A stretch of DNA of 64,000 nucleotides from a virus, in IMG/VR virus record IMGVR_UViG_3300045988_098886, one strand, 5' to 3'. The first letter of the stretch is position 1. Each line of letters starts with the position of its first letter. Positions 10,043 through 27,096 of the stretch are shown here, piece by piece. The notes under the pieces were generated by a model. It made no database searches and was not told where the DNA came from. It was given only the letters and a program-made list of their open reading frames with translations. Both the position numbers and the translations under genes were made by a program.

Positions 10043-10497
10043 GCAATTGTTATGTAAAGATACTTAGTAGTGTAAGGACCTGTCTCACATGAGAACTCAA
10101 TTATGTCACTATCATCGAATAAATCATAGATACTTCCATATCTGTCTTCCCCTAGTGTAGTCCAATCAACATAATCCCTTAAATCTTCTGGAATTCTATG
10201 TCTCTCATCCATTATGTAGTCTTGTCTAGCGTCATAGAGCATATCATCAATATCATCGTCATTATATACTCTATATGTCTCTTCGGTACCATCTTCTTTC
10301 TCAAAAGTAATTTCTCCATCATCCCACTCATCAACTGTGATTTTTTCAAGGATATTCTGAATTTCTTCTTCTGGAGTGTCTTCATCAAAATAAGCTTTAT
10401 ACAGGTCTAGGACGGCTACAACTTTCCAAGGGTTATCATATTCTTTATCTTCTAAGTAAGTAGCCATAAAATTGAGTTTCTCTTCTCTTTCAGTCAT
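10036..10497 (-). CDS. hypothetical acidic protein (153 aa)
   Basis: ORF track. Very D/E-rich. Confidence 0.6.
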   Translation of the reverse strand: MTEREEKLNFMATYLEDKEYDNPWKVVAVLDLYKAYFDEDTPEEEIQNILEKITVDEWDDGEITFEKEDGTEETYRVYNDDDIDDMLYDARQDYIMDERHRIPEDLRDYVDWTTLGEDRYGSIYDLFDDSDIIEFSCETGPYTTKYLYITIAW

Positions 10498-10509
10498 TTT
10501 AGTAAATTT

Positions 10510-11928
10510 TTATTGTAATAAATGAACATCTTTTCTTGTCCGAGACAATGCTACATACTGCAATTGTCTTCTTTCATCTTCATCTTTACAAAGGTTGATA
10601 TTCTTCATATCAACGAAAACCTCTCCATAAGAACTTCCTTGAGACTTATGTGTAGAGCAGGCATAGCCATAATCAAAGGACTTCTTTCTAATTAACCTAT
10701 TTTCATAGAACATATCTACTGGAGTTGTGAAACTTCCAATGACATTGTAGTATTCCTTCCAAGCAGTTCTAGATTGCTGAAGTCTACCATTCTCCTTTAG
10801 GTTAATAGCTTGTAATCGCAGTCCTTCAATACGTGATGCTAGAGCTTGCATATAATCAGAATCAATATCTCTTGAAATCATAGATATTGGAGTTCTGTCA
10901 TCTGTATTAGAATCATACAGTGTAAGCTCATATCCTGGGACTTTCATAAACCCAGGAATATAAATATCACGCTTTTCCGGCTCGTCTACTATAATATAAT
11001 CCATTGAGTTCCAGAACTTAATGCCATTAAATTCGAGATTCTCATATCCGGTTAAGAACTCAAACTGATGATATTCAACAGTTTTTGCATCTTCCCAGAT
11101 TACTCTTCTGATACAATTGTTATAGCTAGTAACCATAACATTCGTATATGACAATATTTTAGTTGCCAATATATCTCCATCTCTCATTGCTTTCTTGTAA
11201 GCTGGCACTGCTGCCTTTAGAAATGGAATAACATCAGAATGACAATATAGAGAACCCTCCTCTGATTCAACAGAGTGGAATCTATCAATGGTGTTACTTC
11301 TTAAAGTAGTTAATATGGGCATTAGTGCATTATTCTCTGCCTGCCTATAAATCTTAGTAAGAATATACCTATCCTCTAAGTTAAATACTTTAGAAGTAGT
11401 GAGTGAATTAACAGGACGTAATTGACATTTGTCTCCCACAAATATCACTTTACAATTAAATGCAACACACTTCTCTATTAACAAATCAAATAAATCATCA
11501 TTTATCATAGAAGATTCGTCACATATAACTACTCCACCTCTCGGTATCTGTATTCTCTTATCATTCACCCTGAACTTTAAATCCTTAAAGTCCAATTCAA
11601 GGATTTCAATATTTGGAGAAAGTTGCAATAACTGATGCAATGTTATAGCGTCTCTATTGGTAAATCTTGAAAGTACCAATTTGGCTTTGTGAGTTGGGGC
11701 ACATAAAGCATACTCCATTGTAAATTCAGAATCCATATACTCAATGAGAGTTCTCATTAAGAAACTTTTTCCTGTACCTGCTGCTCCAATTAATGAAAAT
11801 GCTCTTTTGTTTTTATCCTTTAAGAACTCTTTCATTGCATCTAATGCTTCTACTTGCTGTTCTCCCAGTTGAGGTTTTTCTGTTTCTACACCTATGTTTG
11901 ATAGTGTGAAGTTAAACATACTATGCAA
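10510..11928 (-). CDS. SF1 DNA helicase, Dda/RecD-like
   Basis: Walker A GAAGTGKSF, Walker B VVICDESSM, and the late motif CSTHKSQGSSY typical of RecD/Dda. Confidence 0.85.
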   Translation of the reverse strand: MHSMFNFTLSNIGVETEKPQLGEQQVEALDAMKEFLKDKNKRAFSLIGAAGTGKSFLMRTLIEYMDSEFTMEYALCAPTHKAKLVLSRFTNRDAITLHQLLQLSPNIEILELDFKDLKFRVNDKRIQIPRGGVVICDESSMINDDLFDLLIEKCVAFNCKVIFVGDKCQLRPVNSLTTSKVFNLEDRYILTKIYRQAENNALMPILTTLRSNTIDRFHSVESEEGSLYCHSDVIPFLKAAVPAYKKAMRDGDILATKILSYTNVMVTSYNNCIRRVIWEDAKTVEYHQFEFLTGYENLEFNGIKFWNSMDYIIVDEPEKRDIYIPGFMKVPGYELTLYDSNTDDRTPISMISRDIDSDYMQALASRIEGLRLQAINLKENGRLQQSRTAWKEYYNVIGSFTTPVDMFYENRLIRKKSFDYGYACSTHKSQGSSYGEVFVDMKNINLCKDEDERRQLQYVALSRTRKDVHLLQ

Positions 11929-12109
11929 ACATTAGCGTAAGTAATACTATCACTGTAATAACAGCCTTATATGGGTATCTATCCATTTCTTTATCAAGGT
12001 CACTATGCCGTTTGATGTAATCTCTTCCTACAGGATTGAGTGTAAATATAGAAGTTAATACTACATCTGCAATCCATATCCATGCAATAATTTGTGCTAT
12101 TAAAACCAT
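11921..12109 (-). CDS. small membrane protein (62 aa)
   Basis: ORF track. Two hydrophobic segments. Confidence 0.45.
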   Translation of the reverse strand: MVLIAQIIAWIWIADVVLTSIFTLNPVGRDYIKRHSDLDKEMDRYPYKAVITVIVLLTLMFA

Positions 12110-12110
12110 A

Positions 12111-12142
12111 ATAAATAAAAAAGAGCAACCTTATGGCTGCTC
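12111..12142 (-). terminator. rho-independent terminator after nrdG
   Basis: RNA: GAGCAGCC-AUAA-GGUUGCUC followed by UUUUUUAUUUAU. Confidence 0.6.
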
Positions 12143-12637
12143 CTTCCAAAATAAACGTGTAATATCTTCTAATACATAAAGACCTGCTTCCTCATAGGTT
12201 TTATTAACCTTATACATTTTTTGATTGGTATTAGGATTATCAAGTGGTCCACATTCTTCAATGTAAGGACCAAGCTTGATATAATCAAAGTTTTTTAAAC
12301 AAATATCTTGGGGTATTTCTTTTCTACCACTATACCAAGCTATCTTTACATCGGCCCAACTTCCAGGAGTATCATTCATACTGCGCATTATATCAGCTAA
12401 CCAATTAATGTATGCTGGCTCTGAATCCCCTCCCATGAATGCTACACAGGTAATTCCTTTATTATCAAGCATTAGTTCTACTAGAGAATCTTCGTCAAGA
12501 GGTTTTCCAATATCCTCTGCCAAGTAAGAGCTATGACAGCCCTTACAATGACATGGGCAATTGGATATATTTATACAGAGAGTGATTTCATCTGGAATCT
12601 CCCTTAAAGTTACTGCTGTGTCTGTGTATTTTATCAT
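12131..12637 (-). CDS. nrdG: anaerobic ribonucleotide reductase activating protein (radical SAM)
   Basis: The cysteine cluster NCPCHCKGCHS contains CxxxCxxC. It lies directly downstream of nrdD. Confidence 0.75.
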   Translation of the reverse strand: MIKYTDTAVTLREIPDEITLCINISNCPCHCKGCHSSYLAEDIGKPLDEDSLVELMLDNKGITCVAFMGGDSEPAYINWLADIMRSMNDTPGSWADVKIAWYSGRKEIPQDICLKNFDYIKLGPYIEECGPLDNPNTNQKMYKVNKTYEEAGLYVLEDITRLFWKEQP

Positions 12638-12640
12638 ACT

Positions 12641-13000
12641 TTAATCAGATTCGTGTAATACAAATACAATTGGCTTGCCATCTACTTCACATACTGATAA
12701 CACCTCTTCATTAGGGTCACAATCATTCATTTCTTTCAGCCATGTATCTAATGTACAAATAACAAAGCCAGACCAGCCATCTGGACCACCTAAGAACCAA
12801 CCCTTTTCTCTAATGATAGAGAAATCTCCATCAAAATCCTGTAGATTATTTCTAACCTTGTCCAACCAATCGTCCATGGATTTATCTCCATAGACTGAAC
12901 AACAGTAATATTTAGATGTATCGAAATGAGCTAAGATAATTTTCTTAGCCAATTCTACGTCGCACACCCAACCATTCTCTATACCTGTCATATTATTCAT
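12641..13000 (-). CDS. hypothetical protein (119 aa)
   Basis: ORF track. It lies between nrdD and nrdG. Confidence 0.6.
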   Translation of the reverse strand: MNNMTGIENGWVCDVELAKKIILAHFDTSKYYCCSVYGDKSMDDWLDKVRNNLQDFDGDFSIIREKGWFLGGPDGWSGFVICTLDTWLKEMNDCDPNEEVLSVCEVDGKPIVFVLHESD

Positions 13001-15206
13001 TTACTGTATACCCTAGTTTAGATTCATCTACTGTATATGTAAGATGATTATATACTCTATGTGTTTGCTCCTCTTGTCTACCTGCTGACCAATTTCTTAT
13101 TTTAGTAAGATAACCTATGATTCTATCGTAAAGGTCAATGTGAGTACTTCCACACATTGGACATTTAGAAACAGGAACCTTAGTTATAAATCCGCAGTCT
13201 TGACATTCAGAATTAGGAACATTGAATGTTAAATAGCTACATCCAACAGTTGCAGCATAGTTGAGTAACAGACTTGCCTGATTCTTGGTAGGATGTTCAG
13301 ATAGATTGATGTGTGCGGCACTTCCTCCGTCTAACCAATCTCCTACATATTCACTACCATGTAGCTTGATTTTCTCAAGAATAGAACTATTTGATTCTGG
13401 TAGGAATACATAAGAAGTGTATAGATTTCTGTCTTTAGGAACCCAATATCCATCAGCTTTATCCCAGTTGTAGTTCTTTACAGCTAAAGATTCAGCAGGA
13501 ACTAGTTCAGTATTAAACATGGTTTTCTTAGTATTGTGAAGTTGATTTTGTTCCTTGATAGTTCCAAATATAAAGTTACAGAATTCCTTATATTCTTTGT
13601 TGTCACTACATTTTATCCCTAAGAACATTGCAGCTTCATTTAATCCATTTAGACCAATAGTTAAATACTGGTTATTTAGATTAATGAATCCGGCTTCATA
13701 AACAGGAAGTAAGTGCGCGTTATATAAATCCCAAAGTAATTCATTATAAGCTGTATGGTATTTATAGACCCTTTCAAGAATATCCTTTAAATACTCTCCA
13801 AGTTCCGGATAGCATGAAGGACTTAATTGAGTTCCGGGTATCGGACAATCATCCTTGTATTCTCGGATATAATTCTGAATAATTCTATTCAGGTTAAGAG
13901 TAATTACAGATTTAGAACCAGTTTGTTCTCCAACTAACCCATTGGTAAATGTAAATTCATTGGATTGTAATTTATTCTTTAGTCTACAACAGCTTGATAA
14001 AGAATCTACACTGTCACTTATATAAGTAAAGAATGAATGTCCTTCCGCATATTCTTCTGATATAAAGTCAGCCCATTCTTGGTCTTCGAATTTCCCATCT
14101 TTATAAAGAAGAGATACAGTTTCAACTGGGAATGTGAGCATACAACGAAGTCTCTCTGCATTAAACCATTTCATGAATTTCTTTTGCAGCCAATTTAAAG
14201 AATCCCATTTTGGAGTATCTCCATCCGGGAATACGAAATGTCCGTACATTCCTTCAAAATAAGGTTTATCAAAATAACTTACATTCCAGAAAGCTGATTG
14301 GAAACCCCTTGCTGCTGCTGGCTGATTTACAGAATATACAATTTGTTGAAAGTACTGCTCTATTTGCTTACCGATAGTACCTTCATCAATTTTATTTCCA
14401 TTTTCGTCTTCATGCCATCTATGTTTAGCATTATCACCGTCAGCATATTTGAAATAATGGTCACCCCATTTCTTACGAGCAAAGTGGTCAAACATTACTA
14501 AGAAACTGGCTGTTGCAACAGCTCCTGCGAATTGAGAAGATACAGCAAATATCATATTTACAAACATTCCACAAAATGAATCAAGGTTCTTTGGAGATGC
14601 AGATAGACCACCAATTCCCTTAATTCCGCCTTGTAGAAATGGATAACAAGATAAAGCTACACAATATGGGAATCCAAATGTAGAGTTCTCATCATGCTTG
14701 TAAAGAATATGATTCTTCAAGTCTCTTTCATATTGTTTCGAATCGAAATCTGGATAAAGAACTTGTAATTTTTCCTTTACTCTGTACCTATTAAGGTCTA
14801 TATTATTGCTTTTATACAATTCATTGTTAAGTACAGCAATGTTCTTATTCGCAACGTTTGAATTATCGTCAACTTCAGAACCTTCTGCTGCATTAGAAGC
14901 TCTCATAAATTCCTTTATAAATTCTTCTCTTTCTCTCACATTCTCACGAACACGAGCTCTATTTTCTCTATATAATATATAGGCTTTAGCAACATCGGGG
15001 AAGTCAAAGTCCATAAGAATTTCTTCTATTTGGTCTTGAATATCCTCAATAGCTATTTCATCCCATATCTCAATAGAATCTAAAATATCATTAACAGTAT
15101 CTTCTTGTGGTGTGTATCCGCAAGCAGTAAATGCTTTTAGGATTGCAATTTTGATTTTAGAAGCATTAAAAGCTTCGCTTGTTCCGTCTCTTTTTACTAC
15201 GTTCAT
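12993..15206 (-). CDS. nrdD: anaerobic ribonucleoside-triphosphate reductase (class III)
   Basis: N-terminal ATP-cone VVKRDGTSEAFNASKI. C-terminal Zn site CQDCGF..CPMCGS, followed by the glycyl-radical motif DRIIGYLT. Confidence 0.9.
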   Translation of the reverse strand: MNVVKRDGTSEAFNASKIKIAILKAFTACGYTPQEDTVNDILDSIEIWDEIAIEDIQDQIEEILMDFDFPDVAKAYILYRENRARVRENVREREEFIKEFMRASNAAEGSEVDDNSNVANKNIAVLNNELYKSNNIDLNRYRVKEKLQVLYPDFDSKQYERDLKNHILYKHDENSTFGFPYCVALSCYPFLQGGIKGIGGLSASPKNLDSFCGMFVNMIFAVSSQFAGAVATASFLVMFDHFARKKWGDHYFKYADGDNAKHRWHEDENGNKIDEGTIGKQIEQYFQQIVYSVNQPAAARGFQSAFWNVSYFDKPYFEGMYGHFVFPDGDTPKWDSLNWLQKKFMKWFNAERLRCMLTFPVETVSLLYKDGKFEDQEWADFISEEYAEGHSFFTYISDSVDSLSSCCRLKNKLQSNEFTFTNGLVGEQTGSKSVITLNLNRIIQNYIREYKDDCPIPGTQLSPSCYPELGEYLKDILERVYKYHTAYNELLWDLYNAHLLPVYEAGFINLNNQYLTIGLNGLNEAAMFLGIKCSDNKEYKEFCNFIFGTIKEQNQLHNTKKTMFNTELVPAESLAVKNYNWDKADGYWVPKDRNLYTSYVFLPESNSSILEKIKLHGSEYVGDWLDGGSAAHINLSEHPTKNQASLLLNYAATVGCSYLTFNVPNSECQDCGFITKVPVSKCPMCGSTHIDLYDRIIGYLTKIRNWSAGRQEEQTHRVYNHLTYTVDESKLGYTVNE

Positions 15207-16066: not shown

Positions 16067-17203
16067 TTATTTATCGTTATTGTTAAGCAGTTTTTCATTC
16101 AAAACTTCCCACACATCTTCATCATAACGAATCTCTATCAATTTTATGTCATTGTCTTTGCAATATTGTCTAACATACTCGTCGCGAGCCTGCTGTTGTT
16201 CAAATTTAAAAGTTCCTCCAAAAGCCATCTCAGGCTCATAATGTTGAATACCATTATATTCAATGAAAGTGTTATGCTCTGGTAAATAAAAATCAATATA
16301 AGCTCTGCCAGAGGTATTAATCTCGTTTGGTATTTGAATAGTATACTCTCTTACAAATTTAATTTTTTCATTTAACAATACATTGCATATTTCTCCTTCT
16401 CCTTTAGAACTAGAACAACTAGGACATCCTTCACCTTGTATATGGGAAGCAGGAGTTTGCCAAAATTCACCATGTTCGGGACATAAAATGCAAATTTTTG
16501 TATGGCTACCTGCATAGTTCACCTTTGAATAATCATATCGTTCTCCGTGAACATATTTGGCGTCTTTTAGAAAGTCATCTAGGGACTTTCTTGTATACTC
16601 ACTATGCTTTTCAGCCGAACACTTGGGACATCCCACATACTTATGAAATTGTCCAGGAAGAACTTCAAAATCACCGTGCTTAGGACATGTTATAGTTACT
16701 TTAGTGTCCCACCCAGTATACACAGTTTTACTATAATCTAATTCTGGGTGGAATTTTTTAAACTCTTGTATATAAGTATCAGTAAACTTTCTAAGCCTTT
16801 CTTCTTCTTTACATTTTAAGCAGCCAACTCCTTTAGATAAGGTGCTAACAAGTGCATTGAATTCTCCATGATTCGGACAAATCAGGGTAACAGAACCTCT
16901 ATTTCCAGTATATCTTACTTTGGAGTAATCATATTTGTCTCCAAATGTATTATATAAACGATTGATAAATTCTTCATTCGATAATCTAAGTTTAGTACTT
17001 TTAGCTAAAGAAGCACACTTATGGCAGCCATCACCTCTCCTAACATGCATTTGAGCTATAACTTCAAAGTCTCCATGCTCTGGACAGGTGACAGTTATTT
17101 TGTTTTGACTGCCAGTATATATAGATTTAGAATAATCATATTTATCCCCATGCTTTTCTTTAGCTCTAGCTATCCATTCTTCGGTGGTGAGCTTTTTGGG
17201 CAT
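16067..17203 (-). CDS. putative homing-type endonuclease: four Zn-ribbon repeats plus a Vsr/DUF559-like PD-(D/E)XK domain
   Basis: Four tandem repeats of about 60 aa: (G)xKYDYSK.xYxG....(I/V)T..CP.HG(D/E)F........G.GC.(K/S)C. The C-terminus IDFYLPEHNTFIEYNGIQHY resembles the DUF559/Vsr core. Confidence 0.5.
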   Translation of the reverse strand: MPKKLTTEEWIARAKEKHGDKYDYSKSIYTGSQNKITVTCPEHGDFEVIAQMHVRRGDGCHKCASLAKSTKLRLSNEEFINRLYNTFGDKYDYSKVRYTGNRGSVTLICPNHGEFNALVSTLSKGVGCLKCKEEERLRKFTDTYIQEFKKFHPELDYSKTVYTGWDTKVTITCPKHGDFEVLPGQFHKYVGCPKCSAEKHSEYTRKSLDDFLKDAKYVHGERYDYSKVNYAGSHTKICILCPEHGEFWQTPASHIQGEGCPSCSSSKGEGEICNVLLNEKIKFVREYTIQIPNEINTSGRAYIDFYLPEHNTFIEYNGIQHYEPEMAFGGTFKFEQQQARDEYVRQYCKDNDIKLIEIRYDEDVWEVLNEKLLNNNDK

Positions 17204-22045: not shown

Positions 22046-22258
22046 TTATAAAGCGTCTATATCAATGACATCGCCTACTTGAGCATTAGCTGCTTCAACG
22101 ATATCAACAAACTCATTCCAATCTCCAGGATAATCTAAATCCCAGAGATTTACATAAGTTTCAATGATTTTATCCTTAGCTTCCTGAAGACTTCTGGCTG
22201 TAACTTTTTCAATCCAGACGCTATCAGATGTGCCAAAAGGAACTACGTATGTGTTCAT
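22046..22258 (-). CDS. hypothetical protein (70 aa)
   Basis: ORF track. Confidence 0.5.
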   Translation of the reverse strand: MNTYVVPFGTSDSVWIEKVTARSLQEAKDKIIETYVNLWDLDYPGDWNEFVDIVEAANAQVGDVIDIDAL

Positions 22259-23058
22259 TCACAAACATCATCAAAGGTTTCAATAATATCAATCATCTCC
22301 TCTGGAAGAACATCCCATACTTGGTCAAAGATAGTTTGTGGCATTTTTTCGTAATAAGCATAAGCAATACTTCCAGCCATAGCTGCAATAGTATCACTAT
22401 CTCCGCCCATAGAAATAGCCAGTTTCAAACAATCTTCATAGTCTTCAGATTCCAGAAATGCAAGCAAAGCAATTGGAACGCTGCCTTGACAAGTAGAGTC
22501 AAAATGGTATCCCGGGCGAATTTCATCAAGAGTTTTTTCGGTATACTCAGGATAATAGTTATCCAAAACGTACCAAATTTGATTCTTAGTAATAGAATCA
22601 TGCTTGGCTCGATAAATAGCTAGTGCGATAGCTTGAGCGCCCTTTACTCCCTCTGGGTCATTATGAGAACACAGGGCAGAATTCTTGGCAAGTTCAAGAC
22701 ATTCTTTTGCGTTATGCGCATAGAATCCAACAGGACTAACACGCATAGCAGAACCATTTCCATAACTTCCATAAGGAACAGGATTATCTATCCATTTACG
22801 GAACATTCCTCCATATCCTCTATTGGGATGTTTCTTACACATTTCCTGAATACATTCTCCAAATTGCTCCGGAGTAGGATTCTTGTATTTCAAAATAGCA
22901 TTTGCTACTCCAATAGTACAAACTGTATCATCAGTAAAATCATTACCTGTTCTTACTAAACGAACAGCTTCATACAGTTTTGTTCTTCCAAATTTTGCTT
23001 CATAGGAGGAACCGCAGACATCTCCTGCGATTGCTCCAAATAGTACATAGTCCATCAT
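22255..23058 (-). CDS. ADP-ribosylglycohydrolase family protein (ARH/DraG-like)
   Basis: GAIAGDVCGSSYE near the N-terminus and MGGDSDTIAAMAGSIAYAYY near the C-terminus are the two hallmark metal-binding motifs. Confidence 0.8.
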   Translation of the reverse strand: MMDYVLFGAIAGDVCGSSYEAKFGRTKLYEAVRLVRTGNDFTDDTVCTIGVANAILKYKNPTPEQFGECIQEMCKKHPNRGYGGMFRKWIDNPVPYGSYGNGSAMRVSPVGFYAHNAKECLELAKNSALCSHNDPEGVKGAQAIALAIYRAKHDSITKNQIWYVLDNYYPEYTEKTLDEIRPGYHFDSTCQGSVPIALLAFLESEDYEDCLKLAISMGGDSDTIAAMAGSIAYAYYEKMPQTIFDQVWDVLPEEMIDIIETFDDVCE

Positions 23059-23360
23059 TGATAATTGGCTGAGTTTTTAATAGTTATTTCTTTGTTGTAG
23101 AAATTGAATCCTTCGGGAGTCCCAAAATCTGTTAATGAAAAACAGTTGTCTATTGCTCCTTCAAAAATTTCGTCATCCGCGTCTTTGTTAAACACTTTAA
23201 CAATTATTCCTTTAAAACTCTTAAGTGATGGCTCTATTGCGAGAACAACGTAATCGTAACCATGACAGGCATACCTAAGAAGGCATGGATAAGGAAGTGT
23301 TTCAGACGTTATAGTAGATGTAATTTTTACGCCCTCTATTTTAGGAGTTGATTTAATCAT
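23055..23360 (-). CDS. hypothetical protein (101 aa)
   Basis: ORF track. Confidence 0.55.
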   Translation of the reverse strand: MIKSTPKIEGVKITSTITSETLPYPCLLRYACHGYDYVVLAIEPSLKSFKGIIVKVFNKDADDEIFEGAIDNCFSLTDFGTPEGFNFYNKEITIKNSANYQ

Positions 23361-24277
23361 AATTCAATTGTTTTAATTGGATTTAAGTTAAATGAACTTG
23401 GGGTTATTTGAACTTTATCCTTTGTAAGAATTACATTCTTACTTAAAGATTCAGGCGGATAAAGATAAGTAGGAATCCTTGAGTTTTCCAAATACTTACA
23501 AAAGTGTGCTCCAAATGCAACATTAGTTACATTCTCCTCAAGAATTTTCTCTTCGAGATATTCAAACACTCCTTCGTCAAGTCCTTTTGAACTTCTACCA
23601 GAAGGCATTAACGGCAATAGAACATGATACTTAATATCACTACCATAGCGTTTCCACTCTTTAATAAAATCATCAACAGAGTCTTTGGCAGAAATAATGT
23701 GATGGATATTCACATTGGTATCACCCATTGTAATTAAGTTGACAATAGCCATATCAGCATTCCTTTTTAATGCTTTATTGCCAAGACTTACTGCCACTCC
23801 ACCAACAAAGTTCCGAGTATACTCAAGCAATTCTCTACTAGTTTTAATATTGGACAGTGTAATACCGTTAGTAGTGTAATTAGGAACCACTCCAGTATTA
23901 TACACAGTTTCCAAGAACTTACAAAAGTCTGGATGAATGGTAGGTTCACCAGTAGAACCGATAGCAATTTGGAATGGCTTGCTGGTAAATACTGTTCCAT
24001 CTTTTACTTCAGATTGGTACATGTACATCCATTTCTTCCATGTTTCACAAATGTCGGGATAATTTATTCCTTTGTGTGAAGCACTTACATAACAAAAGGG
24101 ACACTCTGCATTACACAGTGTATTAATTCCAACATCATAAAATTCAGCCATATCAGCAGGAAGTTCTTTAGCAACTCCACTACCAAGTCTGATTGTTTTA
24201 AGATTGAACCACAGTGCATTGTAATTATATGCGGGGAACATTCTCTTCTTGGCACCCCAATGTTTAAAATCTTTCAT
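23357..24277 (-). CDS. radical SAM enzyme (subfamily undetermined)
   Basis: CNAECPFCY (CxxxCxxC) and IGSTGEPT (a GGEP-like SAM motif). Confidence 0.75.
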   Translation of the reverse strand: MKDFKHWGAKKRMFPAYNYNALWFNLKTIRLGSGVAKELPADMAEFYDVGINTLCNAECPFCYVSASHKGINYPDICETWKKWMYMYQSEVKDGTVFTSKPFQIAIGSTGEPTIHPDFCKFLETVYNTGVVPNYTTNGITLSNIKTSRELLEYTRNFVGGVAVSLGNKALKRNADMAIVNLITMGDTNVNIHHIISAKDSVDDFIKEWKRYGSDIKYHVLLPLMPSGRSSKGLDEGVFEYLEEKILEENVTNVAFGAHFCKYLENSRIPTYLYPPESLSKNVILTKDKVQITPSSFNLNPIKTIEL

Positions 24278-24288
24278 CTTATTCTTTA

Positions 24289-24813
24289 TTAATTTCGTTC
24301 GTTTTCGGGAAGTTTATTCCATTCTGAATATCCAACAAGTTCAACAATTCTCTTAGTCTCTGGGTCTATTCTGCAATAGCCAGTACAACCTATGACATTG
24401 AGATTGTTGATTATCCATTGAATTGTGCCTCTTCTGGCATCATCAATATCAATCCAGAGACGCTTTTCCAGTTCTTCAATAGACTCTTTAAACATAAGAG
24501 AGTATATTTCTTTGGTAAAGAACTCTCTTTTATTCTCTGGAATTTCATCGAACTTGTAACGATTGTATGAATCATCGAATGTCAGTATTTCCAATTCTCC
24601 ACCCATTCCAGAAGAAGAATCATACTTATTCATTTCCTCATCAGAGAGTTTTTCCCATTCCTTCCAAGAACCTTTAAAATAGTTCTTGTCAGCAATTTCA
24701 ATAATAAGCTGCTTGAGCTCACTGATAGGCATTTCTGCCTTAACAGTGAACACTTCAGAGCTTGAATTTGTAATGATGTCTGATACAGACTGCAAATCTA
24801 TTCCTATTCTCAT
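24289..24813 (-). CDS. ITNSSSE-motif paralogue 1 (174 aa)
   Basis: N-terminus MRIGIDLQSVSDIITNSSSEVF. Confidence 0.7.
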   Translation of the reverse strand: MRIGIDLQSVSDIITNSSSEVFTVKAEMPISELKQLIIEIADKNYFKGSWKEWEKLSDEEMNKYDSSSGMGGELEILTFDDSYNRYKFDEIPENKREFFTKEIYSLMFKESIEELEKRLWIDIDDARRGTIQWIINNLNVIGCTGYCRIDPETKRIVELVGYSEWNKLPENERN

Positions 24814-25124
24814 ACTATTATTGTATAGTTGTCTTCTCCAAATTTCTCCTTTAGAATCGCTCTAATTCCAGCTTCGTAGAATGTTTCAAAGTCCTCAATT
24901 CCATAAGGAACTTCAAGAGATATAGAATATTCACCGTCTTCGGTATATTCCCACACTCCAGGAGACATTTCGTAATCATTTCCAGGAAATAGTTCTTGCA
25001 TGACTTTATATATCTCATTATGAGTCTTTTCGTCTTTAGAATCTATCCTAAGAAATACTTCCGAGCTCGAATTAGTGATAATATCAGAGAGTGATTGAAC
25101 TTTAAATGTTATTTTAAGCTTCAT
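24810..25124 (-). CDS. ITNSSSE-motif paralogue 2 (104 aa)
   Basis: N-terminus MKLKITFKVQSLSDIITNSSSEVF. Confidence 0.7.
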   Translation of the reverse strand: MKLKITFKVQSLSDIITNSSSEVFLRIDSKDEKTHNEIYKVMQELFPGNDYEMSPGVWEYTEDGEYSISLEVPYGIEDFETFYEAGIRAILKEKFGEDNYTIIV

Positions 25125-25130
25125 AATTTT

Positions 25131-25517
25131 TTAATGTCTTGATGTCCAGCAAATTGAGTCATCTATCGCATCTTCGAGAACTTCACAACAATCTTCGAAA
25201 TGGTCTTCAATTTCTACAAAGTAAATGTCGTCAAATTCATCGATACGAGGCATTATGTACGAATCCACAAATTCATTCCAGTCTTCAGAGCTAAAACAAT
25301 CGTCGTCTGGTTCTTCGATATTGAGGAAGTCACATATTAATTCCCTTTCCCAATAATTGTTACGAATCCATTCTTCACCAACTGCATCAATACTAATACA
25401 CCCGTCTGATGGTAGATTATCATAACGTTCTGCATCTCTCTGATGCATTAGGAATGTTTCAGAAGAGGAGTTCGTGATAATATCGGAGATACTTTGTATT
25501 TTTGTTAAAATTTTCAT
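25131..25517 (-). CDS. ITNSSSE-motif paralogue 3 (128 aa)
   Basis: N-terminus MKILTKIQSISDIITNSSSETF. Confidence 0.7.
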   Translation of the reverse strand: MKILTKIQSISDIITNSSSETFLMHQRDAERYDNLPSDGCISIDAVGEEWIRNNYWERELICDFLNIEEPDDDCFSSEDWNEFVDSYIMPRIDEFDDIYFVEIEDHFEDCCEVLEDAIDDSICWTSRH

Positions 25518-25684
25518 ACTTTAATCTTTTTAAATCTACCACATTTTTTACATAAAAAAGTAATTTCTACCCAAGTGGGGCGTTTATCAGTCTCACTCCA
25601 GTATACTTCACTCTCTTTTATTTGTTCCCATTCATGGCAGCATAGGAATTTCTTTTTAAACGCTTCTACTAAGTCTCTAAACAT
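25514..25684 (-). CDS. small Cys-containing protein (about 56 aa)
   Basis: The ORF track gives 25514..25705. I prefer the ATG at 25684 (MFRDLV..), just after the upstream stop. It contains CCHEW..CKKCG. Confidence 0.45.
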   Translation of the reverse strand: MFRDLVEAFKKKFLCCHEWEQIKESEVYWSETDKRPTWVEITFLCKKCGRFKKIKV

Positions 25685-25685
25685 A

Positions 25686-26225
25686 TCAATAACGATAATC
25701 AGCACTGTATAGAGTATCTAATGAGTTCAGAGCTTTGGCAGCCATTTCAGCGTCCTCATTGTCTAATCCATCCTTAACTCTGATATTCAGTTCTTCAAGA
25801 GCTGGCATACAGTCATACTCATCGTTATTTTCCTGCACACAGTATTCTTCGTATGTCAGTGCCCCATTTTCAATTGCAACTCTCTTTACTTCATCGAAAA
25901 TATATTCAAGTGCTTTAGACTTATTTTCACTCCAGTCACCCGTATTCCAGCCATCGGAGTAAATTTTTTCAAGAGATTTAGCATAATCATTATCTCCATC
26001 CTTGATATAATTTCTGATGTAGTCATAGTATGCATCCTCCCATCTGTCATCGAACTTAGTGTCGAATACAAATAGGTCAGAGAACATAAGAGTACTTCCT
26101 ACTGATGCAAGTAAAGAATCCACAATATTTCTGATAATACATTCTGCATCATCGTTCAATACTGTAAATGTTTCAGTGGAGCTGTTAGTAATCAAATCTG
26201 TAATAGATTGAATTTTGATTTTCAT
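25686..26225 (-). CDS. ITNSSSE-motif paralogue 4 (179 aa)
   Basis: N-terminus MKIKIQSITDLITNSSTETF. Confidence 0.7.
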   Translation of the reverse strand: MKIKIQSITDLITNSSTETFTVLNDDAECIIRNIVDSLLASVGSTLMFSDLFVFDTKFDDRWEDAYYDYIRNYIKDGDNDYAKSLEKIYSDGWNTGDWSENKSKALEYIFDEVKRVAIENGALTYEEYCVQENNDEYDCMPALEELNIRVKDGLDNEDAEMAAKALNSLDTLYSADYRY

Positions 26226-26226
26226 T

Positions 26227-26559
26227 TTATCCTAAATGATAACGGTTAATATTTGAATAATCTAGACTTTCTATAAACTCCATTACCCATCCCGGTATGC
26301 TGTTATCTGTTACTGACTCGATGACTAAGTCTCCTCTTTTTATTTTAATGTGTCTGTAAAAATCATAGGTCATATCATTTGATGCTACCCAAGTTTTGTA
26401 CAATTCGCTCGGAACTAATCCGGCAGCGGTTACTACTTCATCAATCAGTTCTTCTATTTCCTGATTTTTACTTTTTTGATTGTGAACTACAAACAACTCA
26501 CTCGAGCTATTTGTTATCACATCTGATATTGACTGCGTCCTCAAGATTACTATCATCAT
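26227..26559 (-). CDS. ITNSSSE-motif paralogue 5 (110 aa)
   Basis: N-terminus MMIVILRTQSISDVITNSSSELF. Confidence 0.7.
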   Translation of the reverse strand: MMIVILRTQSISDVITNSSSELFVVHNQKSKNQEIEELIDEVVTAAGLVPSELYKTWVASNDMTYDFYRHIKIKRGDLVIESVTDNSIPGWVMEFIESLDYSNINRYHLG

Positions 26560-26683
26560 CTAAAAGTGTTTGTAAGTTATTAATTTCTCTTTGGTGATAG
26601 TCTATTTCGTCCTCTAAATCCATAATTATAAGATTATGTTCAAGGATTTGGCTCTCTATCACTTCTCTCTGTTCATTTGTCAT
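26507..26683 (-). CDS. possible small acidic coiled-coil protein (58 aa)
   Basis: My translation: MTNEQREVIESQILEHNLIIMDLEDEIDYHQREINNLQTLLDDDSNLEDAVNIRCDNK. It overlaps paralogue 5 by 53 nt and is below the track cut-off. Confidence 0.3.
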   Translation of the reverse strand: MTNEQREVIESQILEHNLIIMDLEDEIDYHQREINNLQTLLDDDSNLEDAVNIRCDNK

Positions 26684-26686
26684 AAC

Positions 26687-26717
26687 AATAAAAAAGGCGA
26701 CTATTGTTTAGTCGCCT
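26687..26717 (-). terminator. rho-independent terminator
   Basis: RNA: AGGCGACUA-AACAA-UAGUCGCCU followed by UUUUUUAUU. It overlaps the stop of 26701..27096. Confidence 0.65.
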
Positions 26718-27096
26718 TAATTAGTTCATAGAAATATTCTTTTGTCATAATGACATATTCTCCAATAGAGCCCATGTTGACTTCCTTATTTACCTGATAG
26801 TTATGAAACACTACCAATGGTCTGTCTTTACGAGGGCATCCGGGAATAATGTCTTGATACGAGGGCTTATTCTTAGTACATTTGCATTGCACATAGAATG
26901 GTAACGTGTTTGGAATTGTCTCTGCTATATCTATTTTATCAGCATCAAGGTTTTTCGATTCAGAACGAGAGGACTTCAATCCTTCAAATCCAAGTGCCGT
27001 TAATTCCTTGATAATCTTTAACTCATAATTGTTACCCTTCCTCTTTGCATACGCTCCTGTGTGTTTCTTCTTTGGTTTCTCTTGTTCTTCTGCCAT
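26701..27096 (-). CDS. putative Holliday-junction resolvase-like PD-(D/E)XK nuclease
   Basis: KGNNYELKIIKELTALGFEGLKSSRS..DADKIDI..FYVQCKC resembles the Hjc/RecU-type G..E...L...G....R..S...D(I)..(Q/E)xK layout. Confidence 0.4.
   Translation of the reverse strand: MAEEQEKPKKKHTGAYAKRKGNNYELKIIKELTALGFEGLKSSRSESKNLDADKIDIAETIPNTLPFYVQCKCTKNKPSYQDIIPGCPRKDRPLVVFHNYQVNKEVNMGSIGEYVIMTKEYFYELIKATKQ

Follow-up and report, generated by a model that had tools for sequence, protein, structure and literature searches.

In the genome of a gut phage, one tightly packed minus-strand operon joins the gene of a radical-SAM (rSAM) enzyme to an array of five small proteins that carry a common N-terminal motif, hereafter the tag. 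Genome comparisons show that the pairing of tagged ORFs with an rSAM gene recurs in phylogenetically distant phages, including coliphage RB43. Based on sequence comparison and structure prediction, we favour, with a confidence somewhat above even, the explanation that the enzyme is an rSAM maturase of the phage, which recognises the NSSS motif in several effector proteins and probably modifies it. No description of such tagged proteins paired with an rSAM enzyme was found in the literature, and since the pairing recurs in very different phages, it probably represents an unstudied enzyme-and-substrate system.

The window, by which we mean the whole 64-kb stretch of DNA that was analysed, contains the following features at the locus:

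26694..26718, minus strand: terminator-like hairpin, a 10-bp stem then a T-run (consensus scan only)
26227..26559, minus strand: tagged protein 1, 110 aa, pI 4.8; tag at residues 9-23 (nt 26491-26535)
25686..26225, minus strand: tagged protein 2, 179 aa, pI 4.1; tag at residues 6-20 (nt 26166-26210)
25514..25705, minus strand: untagged Zn-ribbon-like ORF within the array, 63 aa, GTG start
25131..25517, minus strand: tagged protein 3, 128 aa, pI 4.05; tag at residues 8-22 (nt 25452-25496)
24810..25124, minus strand: tagged protein 4, 104 aa, pI 4.4; tag at residues 10-24 (nt 25053-25097)
24289..24813, minus strand: tagged protein 5, 174 aa, pI 4.6; tag at residues 8-22 (nt 24748-24792)
23357..24277, minus strand: rSAM enzyme, 306 aa, with CNAECPFCY
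23055..23360, minus strand: 101-aa ORF, a variable accessory gene
22255..23058, minus strand: ADP-ribosylglycohydrolase (ARH), 267 aa (Pfam PF03747, E 3.8e-36; PHROG 6572, E 1.2e-48)

The hairpin stands just after a RusA-like gene and is likely, from its sequence, the upstream boundary of the array's transcription unit. A first-pass annotation had described five consecutive ORFs with an invariant N-terminal motif. All five are real and lie at the coordinates above, directly upstream of the rSAM gene, but their succession is broken by the untagged 63-aa ORF, which overlaps the genes on both sides, lacks the NSSS motif, matches PHROG 28857 (E 1e-6) and is kept at 75-90% identity in the closest related loci. 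The other neighbours are as had been described, namely the rSAM gene, the 101-aa ORF and then the ARH gene. The 101-aa ORF has 4-nt overlaps with both the rSAM and the ARH genes, an arrangement of translational coupling, and is found at 41-100% identity in many, not all, related loci. Judged by gene content, ARH is not a conserved member of the module: it shares the operon, is missing from many loci of the close relatives (clade 1), and is not among the gene families common to loci of the distant clade (clade 2).

The motif QS.(S/T)D..TNSS(S/T)E.F occupies residues ~6-24 in all five tagged ORFs, with ten positions invariant, and these are the only copies in a six-frame translation of the whole 64 kb; for TNSS[ST]E, residue shuffles predict 0.02 occurrences against the 5 observed. 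At the nucleotide level the five copies share only 24-32 of 45 positions, the same codon is used at only 1-5 of 10-14 identical residues, and the Ser codons alternate between TCN and AGY. Because synonymous sites between the copies are saturated, selection acts on the tag peptide, and the differing codon usage means that the repeat is kept by peptide selection rather than by recent duplication, gene conversion or a DNA element. These codon comparisons show purifying selection on the tag at the peptide level. Across 1002 clusters at 50% identity, the tag always lies within the first ~45 residues (start at residue 1-21); the core of the motif is [D/G]-h-h-[S/T]-N-S-S-[S/T]-x-x-[F/Y]-h-h, in which h is hydrophobic.

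The rest of each protein, the body, had been called acidic and unrelated to its neighbours, and it is so: the pI values are 4.05-4.76, and neither BLASTP nor profile-profile comparison found mutual similarity among the five. The bodies are not hypervariable, as had also been claimed; each is instead its own conserved class, with orthologues ~35-95% identical in related phages and a fixed gene order. The class of tagged protein 1 ends in ...DNSIP...RYHLG, is kept in related loci and is the only one with BLASTP matches to tagged proteins of clade 2 (L099, 114 aa, and L092, 120 aa; E 1e-6 to 4e-5). The class of tagged protein 2 ends in ...LNSLDTLYSADYRY, and its orthologues P0006-P0019 have bodies 77-99% identical; that of tagged protein 3 ends in ...IEDHFED...W.SRH and counts eighteen orthologue clusters at 52-97% identity; that of tagged protein 4 ends in ...FGEDNYTIIV; and tagged protein 5 carries the body motif IDIDxxRxxTIxWIxxNL. 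The tagged proteins had been left as an unrecognised family, and they still are one, with no match in Pfam, PHROGs, NCBIfam or a PDB sequence search, nor with Foldseek against PDB or BFVD. Pfam, PHROGs and further family searches likewise gave no family match for tagged protein 2 and none for the 101-aa ORF.

Structure prediction of the bodies covers one class, that of tagged protein 5, whose AlphaFold2 model averages a pLDDT of 87; the score exceeds 90 over residues 27-174 but drops below 50 across tag residues 10-26, and the model has no structural neighbour in PDB or BFVD. In this one predicted body, the tag is shown not to be confidently packed. The absence of some partner or ligand from the prediction could account for its low pLDDT, and that partner need not be the rSAM enzyme.

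The enzyme carries the motifs C55-x3-C59-x2-C62, GSTGEP and YTTNG. The Pfam search recommended at first pass did return Radical_SAM (PF04055, E 2.5e-5), but at 24.9 bits, under the gathering score of 29.5 bits; membership of the rSAM superfamily is beyond doubt because of the motifs, fold and homologues. The protein matches PHROG 7293 (E 8.6e-7), and hhalign against the PHROG 7293 clade gives 99.7% (E 1.4e-25, 239 columns); by profile comparison, it is a SPASM-less homologue of this phage rSAM-SPASM family. Its degenerate SPASM remnant lacks cluster cysteines, and its last 150 aa contain a single Cys where sister-clade enzymes have 4-9. The AlphaFold2 model (pLDDT 84.7) has SuiB as its best Foldseek match (E 8.6e-9), followed by DesII, AbmM, SkfB, EpeE and PqqE, and this predicted structure is nearest to the peptide-modifying RiPP maturases among them (SuiB, SkfB, EpeE, PqqE).

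The association of the enzyme with tagged ORFs, first noticed at a single locus, is borne out on a wider scale, with the qualification that co-occurrence within each clade is partly confounded by shared ancestry or synteny. The rSAM gene is present in 66 of 68 related IMG/VR loci found via the motif, and the other two loci stop at a contig end. Clade-1 arrays hold 2-6 tagged ORFs, the rSAM gene starts a median of 6 nt (range -13 to +119) after the last tagged stop, and the tag is nearly invariant while rSAM identity falls to 52%. Among eight MAG-binned contigs, six have an rSAM homologue beside the tagged ORFs, two of these enzymes being only 32-36% identical; L119 and L121 have tagged ORFs but no rSAM gene was seen in them, and the tagged ORFs of L119 run to the contig end. 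The system was found only in phage contigs, some of them MAG-binned.

In the distant rSAM-SPASM clade, 22 of 24 non-T4-like loci, and cultured Vibrio phage D479, have 1-9 same-strand tagged ORFs near the rSAM gene, with the tag MK(I/T)R.GF(V/I)SNSSS(S/T)SF at the ORF start; L097 and L101 have the enzyme with no tagged ORF nearby. Only the rSAM gene (all 22) and mostly-tagged classes (at most 6 loci each) occur in more than four of 22 non-redundant clade-2 loci. Apart from the enzyme and the tagged ORFs, the two clades have no neighbouring genes in common. Intermediate tags exist, such as DFITNSSSS.F in L112 and L114. In the reverse direction, loci were selected by the tag alone: in 47 of 78 an rSAM homologue lies within 10 kb (median 387 nt from the nearest tag), and in 31 none does.

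The same partners occur in cultured T4-related phages. PHROG 7293 of RB43/KP15-like phages and D479 is a true homologue of the window enzyme, and their tagged proteins have the NSSS..F core at an equal N-terminal position, with GFVSNSSSSSF there against D..TNSSSE.F in the window. The RB43 tagged protein is RB43ORF121c (PHROG 7397), which has homologues in 175 records; the rSAM occurs in 173, and per-genus counts of the two are nearly identical. PHROG 7293 and PHROG 7397 occur in the same set of cultured phages, and both are annotated 'unknown function'; the five window proteins have no match to PHROG 7397. RB43-like coliphages and Klebsiella phages have both genes ~20 kb apart, and RB43 has a single tagged gene in contrast to the array beside the rSAM gene in the window.

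Among known systems, RiPP rSAM-SPASM/twitch enzymes (SuiB for streptide, SkfB, PqqE and the epimerase EpeE/YydG) are nearest to the rSAM core model. As in RiPP systems, one rSAM gene stands beside several genes with a common conserved N-terminal segment, and the sister clade retains the SPASM domain. Unlike RiPP precursors, the phage 'precursors' are acidic proteins of 80-245 aa, with no short precursor among them, and the modelled body folds confidently (one case); their conserved part is ~16 residues at the extreme N-terminus, rich in Ser, Thr and Asn. Pfam detects no RRE/PqqD domain in the phage enzyme, no conserved protease, exporter or other tailoring gene lies near the phage loci, and the window enzyme has no auxiliary-cluster cysteines. 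The RiPP-like logic proposed at first pass is partly supported, by the maturase-like rSAM model, the unplaced tag and the co-conservation; neither a known domain in the tagged proteins nor a lack of co-conservation, the two outcomes named there as refuting it, was seen. Several defining RiPP features fail, however: the short precursor, an RRE domain detected by Pfam and a conserved protease or exporter.

Other systems match single aspects. The anaerobic sulfatase maturase anSME/AtsB is one rSAM-SPASM enzyme that serves many paralogous sulfatases as whole-protein substrates; it recognises a short conserved motif near the sulfatase N-terminus, whose Ser or Cys is oxidised, and is thought to need its SPASM clusters. 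anSME is among the Foldseek matches of the rSAM model (rank 32, E 2.9e-4), but SPASM clusters are missing from the window enzyme, and the tagged proteins are not sulfatases, lack the (C/S)xPxR motif of sulfatases and have no common fold. In the prochlorosins, one lanthipeptide synthetase, ProcM, processes many precursors with a conserved leader and diverse cores, and the diverse short peptide is the modification site. The phage system would have a similar division into one enzyme and many substrates, with a conserved N-terminal recognition part and diverse C-terminal parts; it differs in enzyme class, the most conserved part would be the likeliest site, and each of the diverse parts belongs to a conserved protein class. 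Glycyl-radical activases (PflA with PflB or GrcA; NrdG with NrdD) also show an rSAM enzyme acting on a folded protein; GrcA is small and acidic, as are the tagged proteins, and PflA ranks 39 for the rSAM model. In the tagged proteins, by contrast, a glycine loop of the RVxG[FYW] type is missing and the motif is N-terminal. An NrdD activase was rejected as the identity of the enzyme, as the window holds its own NrdD and NrdG-like gene elsewhere.

In the maturation module that we propose, one rSAM enzyme would work with small, acidic, separately folded proteins that share an N-terminal motif. The enzyme would recognise the exposed N-terminal segment of every tagged protein, and its 5'-deoxyadenosyl radical would take a hydrogen from an invariant residue of the N-S-S stretch, so that a post-translational modification is installed on the tag. 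Since the SPASM auxiliary-cluster cysteines are lost here and kept in relatives, the chemistry is probably one that needs none, for example epimerisation or a different redox-neutral reaction, and not an oxidation of the anSME type. Once matured, the proteins would serve the phage as effectors; co-transcription with replication-module genes, acidic products and variable copy number suggest host takeover or counter-defence. Four points of this scheme are inferred: binding between enzyme and tag, a modification placed on the tag instead of the body, the atom under attack and the action of the products; the NSSS patch could be the modified site, a docking element or both. Against a maturase stand the ~20-kb separation in RB43-like phages, the 31 tag-selected loci with no rSAM gene within 10 kb, the enzymes of L097 and L101 with no tagged ORF nearby, the missing RRE domain, and natural deletion variants (below) that keep tagged genes but not the enzyme.

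The tagged proteins may instead be partners of the enzyme, each docked by its N-terminal strand, for example by beta-augmentation on the conserved three-strand element that precedes the rSAM core, and serving as specificity, scaffold or carrier subunits towards third-party substrates (host proteins, nucleic acids or small molecules). We consider this unlikely, though it is the most probable of the alternatives. The genomic linkage speaks for it as much as for a maturase, several conserved classes in fixed order, one of them common to both clades, fit defined subunits better than arbitrary cargo, and the first strand of the tagged protein 5 model (residues 2-6) is placed with fair confidence whereas the motif is not. 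However, the invariant tag positions are Ser, Thr and Asn where docking strands usually show a hydrophobic pattern, one enzyme gene to 2-13 tagged genes resembles an enzyme and its substrates, and obligate subunits would not usually differ so freely in copy number and class content from one phage to the next.

It is less probable again that the tag works independently of the enzyme, be it as a degron, as a strand for homo- or hetero-oligomerisation or as a signal that directs targeting or packaging, with the rSAM gene a co-regulated neighbour that has another target. The precedent is T4, whose internal proteins, diverse, small and encoded at variable loci, share a short conserved N-terminus that targets them to the capsid, and the clade-1 S-S-E may resemble the S/A/G-x-E protease sites of giant phages. 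The arrays with no rSAM gene within 10 kb and the distance in RB43 also agree with it, as do deletion variants that lack the rSAM gene and keep two tagged genes intact (four contigs found; two read, from two different samples); from these, either the enzyme is dispensable for propagation or their tagged genes are decaying. Yet the Glu is absent from the clade-2 tag, no prohead protease site is common to both clades, and the array genes sit among replication and early-type genes, not head genes. The T4 analogy offers nothing on the rSAM partnership. A tag of independent function would leave unexplained why otherwise unrelated clade-2 loci widely share no genes but those of the rSAM enzyme and the tagged proteins, and why this rare rSAM family lies within 10 kb in 60% of tag-selected loci.

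Slightly more doubtful still is the motif as an active-site or ligand-binding loop (phosphate-binding, metal-binding or nucleophile) of one very fast-evolving small fold, the paralogues being divergent enzymes or binders. The small, polar invariant residues (D, T, N, S, S, E) would also suit a ligand-binding loop, the tagged protein 5 model places an N-terminal beta strand before the motif and a strand and helix after it, and conserved C-terminal residues in several classes could complete a site, the last four positions being enriched in H, Y, W or C (69% and 62%, where other window ORFs reach 38%; p 6e-5). Against a common fold, body lengths run from ~60 to 220 residues, body classes are related by profile-profile comparison only among those ending in HLG, no domain or structure matched, and the AlphaFold body is confident without the motif integrated (one class); the rSAM linkage would also be left unexplained.

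Finally, a DNA-level origin of the repeat, whether through a role in recombination or regulation or through recent duplication or gene conversion, has a negligible probability: recombination does occur in the array, where it has joined paralogues to each other or a paralogue to the ARH gene in chimeras P0046, P0049 and P0034 (the last a natural deletion chimera with tagged protein 4 as its 5' parent), but the codon analysis of the five copies refutes it, and the tag peptide is kept across phages whose rSAM enzymes are 32% identical.

Five small ORFs on the minus strand encode proteins that share a Ser-rich motif, QS(I/V/L)(S/T)D(I/L/V)ITNSS(S/T)E.F, a few residues past the start (the tag; the remainder of each protein is its body). 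They are followed by a radical-SAM enzyme (rSAM), and the genomic evidence makes it very probable that the rSAM and the NSSS-tagged proteins form a functional module. The first-pass annotation described the five tagged ORFs and, beyond them, a co-directional rSAM, a 101-aa ORF and an ADP-ribosylglycohydrolase (ARH); the ORFs are real, on the minus strand, and the gene order is as claimed:

26694-26718, minus strand, terminator-like hairpin right after the RusA-like gene (10-bp stem with 5 G-C pairs, then a T-run)
26227-26559, minus strand, tagged protein of 110 aa
25686-26225, minus strand, tagged protein of 179 aa
25514-25705, minus strand, untagged 63-aa basic Zn-ribbon-like ORF within the array (PHROG 28857), overlapping both neighbours
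25131-25517, minus strand, tagged protein of 128 aa
24810-25124, minus strand, tagged protein of 104 aa
24289-24813, minus strand, tagged protein of 174 aa
23357-24277, minus strand, rSAM of 306 aa
23055-23360, minus strand, 101-aa ORF
22255-23058, minus strand, ARH

Six-frame translation of the whole window yielded these five copies of the tag only; for TNSS[ST]E the count is five, where 0.02 would be expected. The array genes are tightly packed, with 4-nt overlaps or gaps of at most 11 nt, and continue in this way into the rSAM, the 101-aa ORF and ARH. The hairpin just upstream suggests that the tagged array opens its own transcription unit. The 63-aa Zn-ribbon-like ORF is kept in the closest relatives, and no homologue of it was detected in more distant arrays. 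A 58-aa acidic ORF (26507-26683, minus strand), predicted only, shares 53 nt, read in another frame, with the beginning of the first tagged gene. The window as a whole is AT-rich (G+C ~35%) with almost all genes on the minus strand, and cultured phages yielded no megablast match to the locus. Its gene content includes a primase, DnaB-like and Dda-like helicases, a RusA-like resolvase, DNA and RNA ligases, and the following genes around an anaerobic ribonucleotide reductase:

16067-17203, minus strand, HNH/homing endonuclease near NrdD (PHROG 559, E 3e-78)
12993-15206, minus strand, NrdD-like anaerobic ribonucleotide reductase (PHROG 25611, E 8e-107)
12131-12637, minus strand, NrdG-like protein of 168 aa after NrdD (Fer4_12 at 21.4 bits, marginally below the cut-off of 22)

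The linkage between rSAM and tag recurs throughout the close relatives of the window. A motif scan of IMG/VR gave 68 loci of the window's own clade (clade 1), on contigs of up to ~200 kb, and 66 of them carry an rSAM homologue of 52-95% identity, a count that, like those for the distant clade below, is inflated by synteny; the remaining two end at the contig edge. Arrays hold 2-6 tagged ORFs, the last of which ends -13 to +119 nt from the start of the rSAM, with a median of 6 nt. Among 185,579 reference genomes, the tag was matched only in eight short contigs binned into MAGs of unrelated taxa and presumably of phage origin. The rSAM-tag layout is seen in six of the eight, two of them with an rSAM just 32-36% identical; in the other two (L119 and L121) tagged ORFs were found and no rSAM was seen, the tagged ORFs of L119 running to the contig end. 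Co-conservation of the enzyme, on which the first-pass annotation had staked its proposal, is thus found in both sets, and ARH and the 101-aa ORF are often absent from clade-1 loci.

One deletion variant, P0034, occurs on four contigs and was read at two places in two different samples (L125:6001-6738 and L126:842-1579). It joins residues 1-75 of the 104-aa protein to the C-terminal two-thirds of ARH at a shared PYG, so that the 174-aa tagged gene is lost together with the rSAM and the 101-aa ORF. The 179-aa and 128-aa tagged genes are intact despite the loss of rSAM. This apparent fusion of tag and ARH was considered as a case of tag-plus-cargo modularity and rejected as a deletion chimera.

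The same arrangement is found in a sister, distant clade (clade 2), made up of PHROG 7293 rSAM-SPASM enzymes, whose tagged ORFs start MK(I/T)R.GF(V/I)SNSSS(S/T)SF(I/V)(I/V). Among 32 IMG/VR loci, 24 of them not T4-like, same-strand small tagged ORFs (1-9 per locus) are present in 22 of the 24 and also in Vibrio phage D479, mostly a few hundred to a few thousand nt from the rSAM. When all ORFs of 22 non-redundant loci were clustered, the widely shared families were the rSAM (22/22) and the tagged classes (at most 6 each), and no other family was common to more than three. Loci were also selected in the reverse direction. From more than 600 pattern matches to the clade-2 tag in IMG/VR, 78 loci were chosen by the tag alone and inspected over +/-10 kb; an rSAM homologue lies within 10 kb in 47 of them, at a median of 387 nt from the nearest tag, with 1-13 tags per locus. 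Some tagged arrays have no rSAM within 10 kb.

Divergence among the tag copies indicates that what selection maintains is the peptide. Only 24-32 of 45 nucleotides agree between the five copies of the window, the same codon is used at only 1-5 of 10-14 identical residues, and the Ser codons alternate between TCN and AGY. This codon divergence excludes recent duplication and rules out gene conversion and a DNA-level repeat or other DNA element as the origin of the tag. Between clades, the tags have the core [D/G]-h-h-[S/T]-N-S-S-[S/T]-x-x-[F/Y]-h-h in common; Glu after NSSS is found in the clade-1 tag only, which has no conserved Gly, and intermediate tags such as MKIITDFITNSSSSVF bridge the two variants. 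An exhaustive search of 1.84 billion cluster representatives with a tag-only profile (E <= 1e-3) retrieved 1002 protein clusters at 50% identity, in which the match always falls within the first ~45 residues (start at residue 1-21) of proteins of 35-244 aa with acidic bodies. A 44-aa profile of the clade-2 tag returned 54 short fragments and nothing more in the protein search, and against the PDB the tag-only profiles gave one chance match for the window tag (Prp40, E 0.33) and none for the clade-2 tag.

The enzyme has the hallmarks of a radical-SAM protein related to peptide maturases. Its cluster motif CX3CX2C (C55-N-A-E-C59-P-F-C62-Y) has three Cys invariant in 32 homologues, the GGE-type SAM-binding motif G107-S-T-G-E-P and a further Cys, C77, are likewise invariant, and YTTNG is also present. 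The score against Pfam PF04055 (24.9 bits) falls below the gathering cut-off of 29.5, which reflects divergence and is no argument against radical SAM membership; many close homologues have a precomputed PF04055 match. An AlphaFold2 model (pLDDT 84.7, pTM 0.86) gave 45 Foldseek matches in the PDB at E <= 1e-3, mostly radical-SAM enzymes, with SuiB on top (E 8.6e-9, TM 0.59), followed by DesII, AbmM, SkfB, EpeE, BlsE, PqqE and NifB, and with anSME and PflA further down. A three-strand element at residues 9-30, conserved between the clades, precedes the core; an RRE (PqqD-like) was matched in neither Pfam nor NCBIfam by sequence models, and the rSAM model shows just this element. A role as NrdD activase was rejected, since a separate NrdG-like gene adjoins NrdD.

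Relationship to PHROG 7293 is supported by hmmscan (E 8.6e-7, residues 16-204), by profile-profile comparison (probability 99.7%, E 1.4e-25, residues 13-278) and by tblastn, in which the rSAM-SPASM proteins of Vibrio phage D479 and of T4-related Enterobacter phages are ~27% identical. The sister clade matches the Pfam SPASM model (E 3.3e-5) and has 4-9 Cys in the last 150 residues, whereas the window clade has 0-3 and the window rSAM a single one, with no SPASM auxiliary-cluster motif. Where the sister clade has GFDSCSA, EPCES and FPCSF, the window enzyme has AFGAHF, PPES and ITPSSF. The last of these, tag-like at first sight, is accounted for as what remains of the SPASM 'FPCSF' hairpin after a Cys-to-Ser change. 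Judged by sequence, the window rSAM is a SPASM-less derivative of PHROG 7293 enzymes, and the loss of SPASM Cys in its clade argues for a chemistry independent of auxiliary clusters.

The bodies were called hypervariable in the first-pass annotation, a description that has to be abandoned: each paralogue represents its own conserved class, with orthologues ~35-95% identical and in fixed order in relatives. The accompanying description of acidic, mutually unrelated bodies holds for acidity (pI 4.05-4.76 in the five window proteins) and, by BLASTP and profile-profile comparison, for the lack of similarity among paralogues, with the exception of classes ending ...HLG. The classes are told apart by conserved internal and C-terminal signatures, with endings such as ...RYHLG, ...SRH, ...ISHH, ...DYRY and ...YC. 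His, Tyr, Trp or Cys stands in the last four residues of 69% and 62% of tagged proteins, scored on P0241-P0385 and the tagged proteins of loci L083-L115, against 38% of other window ORFs (Fisher p 6e-5). Lengths range from 104 to 179 aa in the window and up to 245 aa elsewhere.

A known domain, which would have made the tag a simple fold element, was sought in the five proteins with Pfam, PHROGs, NCBIfam and PDB sequences, and nothing rose above noise. Modelling covered one body class, the 174-aa protein (53-sequence alignment), for which AlphaFold2 gave a mean pLDDT of 87, with residues 27-174 above 90 and the invariant motif (residues 10-26) below 50. Foldseek with this model found no structural neighbour in the PDB (best E 0.5) and nothing useful in BFVD, where the only match was an 82-aa uncharacterised viral protein (E 1.2e-3). 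The 110-aa class (...DNSIP...HLG) has BLASTP matches among clade-2 tagged proteins.

Among cultured phages, RB43 also encodes a tagged protein. This protein, RB43ORF121c, starts MKIRSGFVSNSSSSSFIV and matches PHROG 7397 (E 1e-110):

L124:2362-2844, minus strand, RB43ORF121c, ending ...LEHGNIFP and covering positions 1-159 of 170 in PHROG 7397

This gene lies ~20 kb from the rSAM-SPASM gene RB43ORF169c, and no tagged ORF was found within 8 kb of the rSAM in T4-like clade-2 members. T4-like versions of this type may be C-terminally shortened, as environmental members run on to ...HIRISHH. The phage collection contains 175 records with a homologue of the tagged protein and 173 with the rSAM, at nearly identical counts per genus; the hosts of these 175 T4-related records are Escherichia, Klebsiella, Enterobacter, Cronobacter and Citrobacter. 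Both PHROG 7293 and PHROG 7397 are annotated 'unknown function'. PHROG 7397 matches none of the five window proteins at E <= 0.1 and has just the NSSS..F core and its N-terminal position in common with them. A by-eye likeness between C-terminal parts (FIFEYEDH...LEHG...ISMH and YFVEIEDH...LEDA...TSRH) makes the window 128-aa class only a lead as a counterpart of PHROG 7397, one that hhalign does not support (probability <=0.6% for window bodies against its body).

What does the module do? The most economical mechanism would be that of an enzyme and its substrates, in which a single rSAM maturase would recognise an exposed N-terminal motif carried by several proteins and modify one residue of the invariant N-S-S stretch. 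Five points lead to this reading: the one-to-many gene ratio, the extreme conservation of small polar tag residues, the poor packing of the motif in the model, the kinship of the rSAM to peptide maturases, and the precedent of anSME, which matures many sulfatases via a short motif containing Ser or Cys. Less probably, the tagged proteins could be partner subunits of the rSAM, a rival that fits the linkage equally well. A second rival, that the tag is an autonomous targeting or assembly signal, perhaps like the capsid-targeting sequence of T4-type proteins that ends at a prohead-protease site, agrees with the arrays that have no rSAM within 10 kb; the Glu after NSSS is confined to clade 1. A third, that the tag is a ligand-binding loop of a divergent fold, would suit its invariant small polar residues.

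The RiPP-like logic proposed initially survives in the linkage to rSAM and the kinship to peptide maturases, and fails in the short precursor and the conserved protease or exporter. RiPP clusters have a short leader-core precursor, whereas the window products are 104-179 aa long and AlphaFold2 folds the body of the 174-aa protein with confidence; RiPP clusters also have a conserved leader protease or exporter, and none is conserved with rSAM and tagged ORFs in the 22 clade-2 loci. The (C/S)-x-P-x-R motif of the anSME-sulfatase system is missing from all five tagged proteins, as is a sulfatase domain, and so is the C-terminal RVxG[FYW] loop of glycyl-radical enzymes. The phage genes conform to a familiar scheme, in which an rSAM maturase serves its cognate precursors, and differ from every described case in substrate type, motif, the absence of accessory genes and confinement to phages. 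We found no family model, structure or paper describing the module; full-text literature searches covered the TNSSSE motif and topics on phage rSAM/SPASM enzymes.

The tagged proteins are small and acidic, vary in copy number and are encoded beside replication genes, which suggests host-directed effectors. A fuller proposal, which we put forward tentatively and consider rather doubtful, is that a dedicated phage rSAM installs an undescribed modification in the Ser-rich N-terminal loop of whole folded proteins acting in host takeover or counter-defence. Candidate products would be D-residues, a reactive group carried on the protein, or a staple linking the N-terminal motif to the conserved His/Tyr/Trp/Cys-rich C-terminal end. 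If the enzyme modifies the tag, this would be a widespread, phage-specific rSAM protein-maturation system. It would carry the logic of RiPPs over from peptides to whole families of folded proteins, give a role to PHROGs 7293 and 7397, and point to many small acidic phage proteins with a probable action on the host. The fuller proposal, if true, would establish 'ribosomally synthesised and post-translationally modified proteins' as a new class, with up to 13 paralogues per 20-kb locus of large phages. Both RB43 and Lw1 can be propagated on laboratory E. coli, so the hypothesis is open to direct genetic and mass-spectrometric testing.

Several further features of these loci were observed. Up to 13 tagged ORFs fall within one 20-kb stretch, and two separate tagged arrays are present on some large phage contigs of 78-340 kb (locus pairs L135/L181, L153/L186, L177/L184 and L141/L185). 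The cluster motif is expanded in several clade-2 rSAM genes (L083:4869-6074, L092 and L082), where a form such as CPGPANRGCSFCY (CX8CX2C) stands in place of CX3CX2C. An insert of 0.3-2 kb interrupts the rSAM gene in 9 of 66 related loci (L051 at 10318-12458, L049, L052, L061, L062, L065, L070, L072 and L076). An Rfam search of the L051 insert found no intron family; this insert breaks the rSAM within the SAM-binding IGSTGEP and contains small ORFs, and the interruption resembles the insertion of a mobile intron or homing endonuclease.
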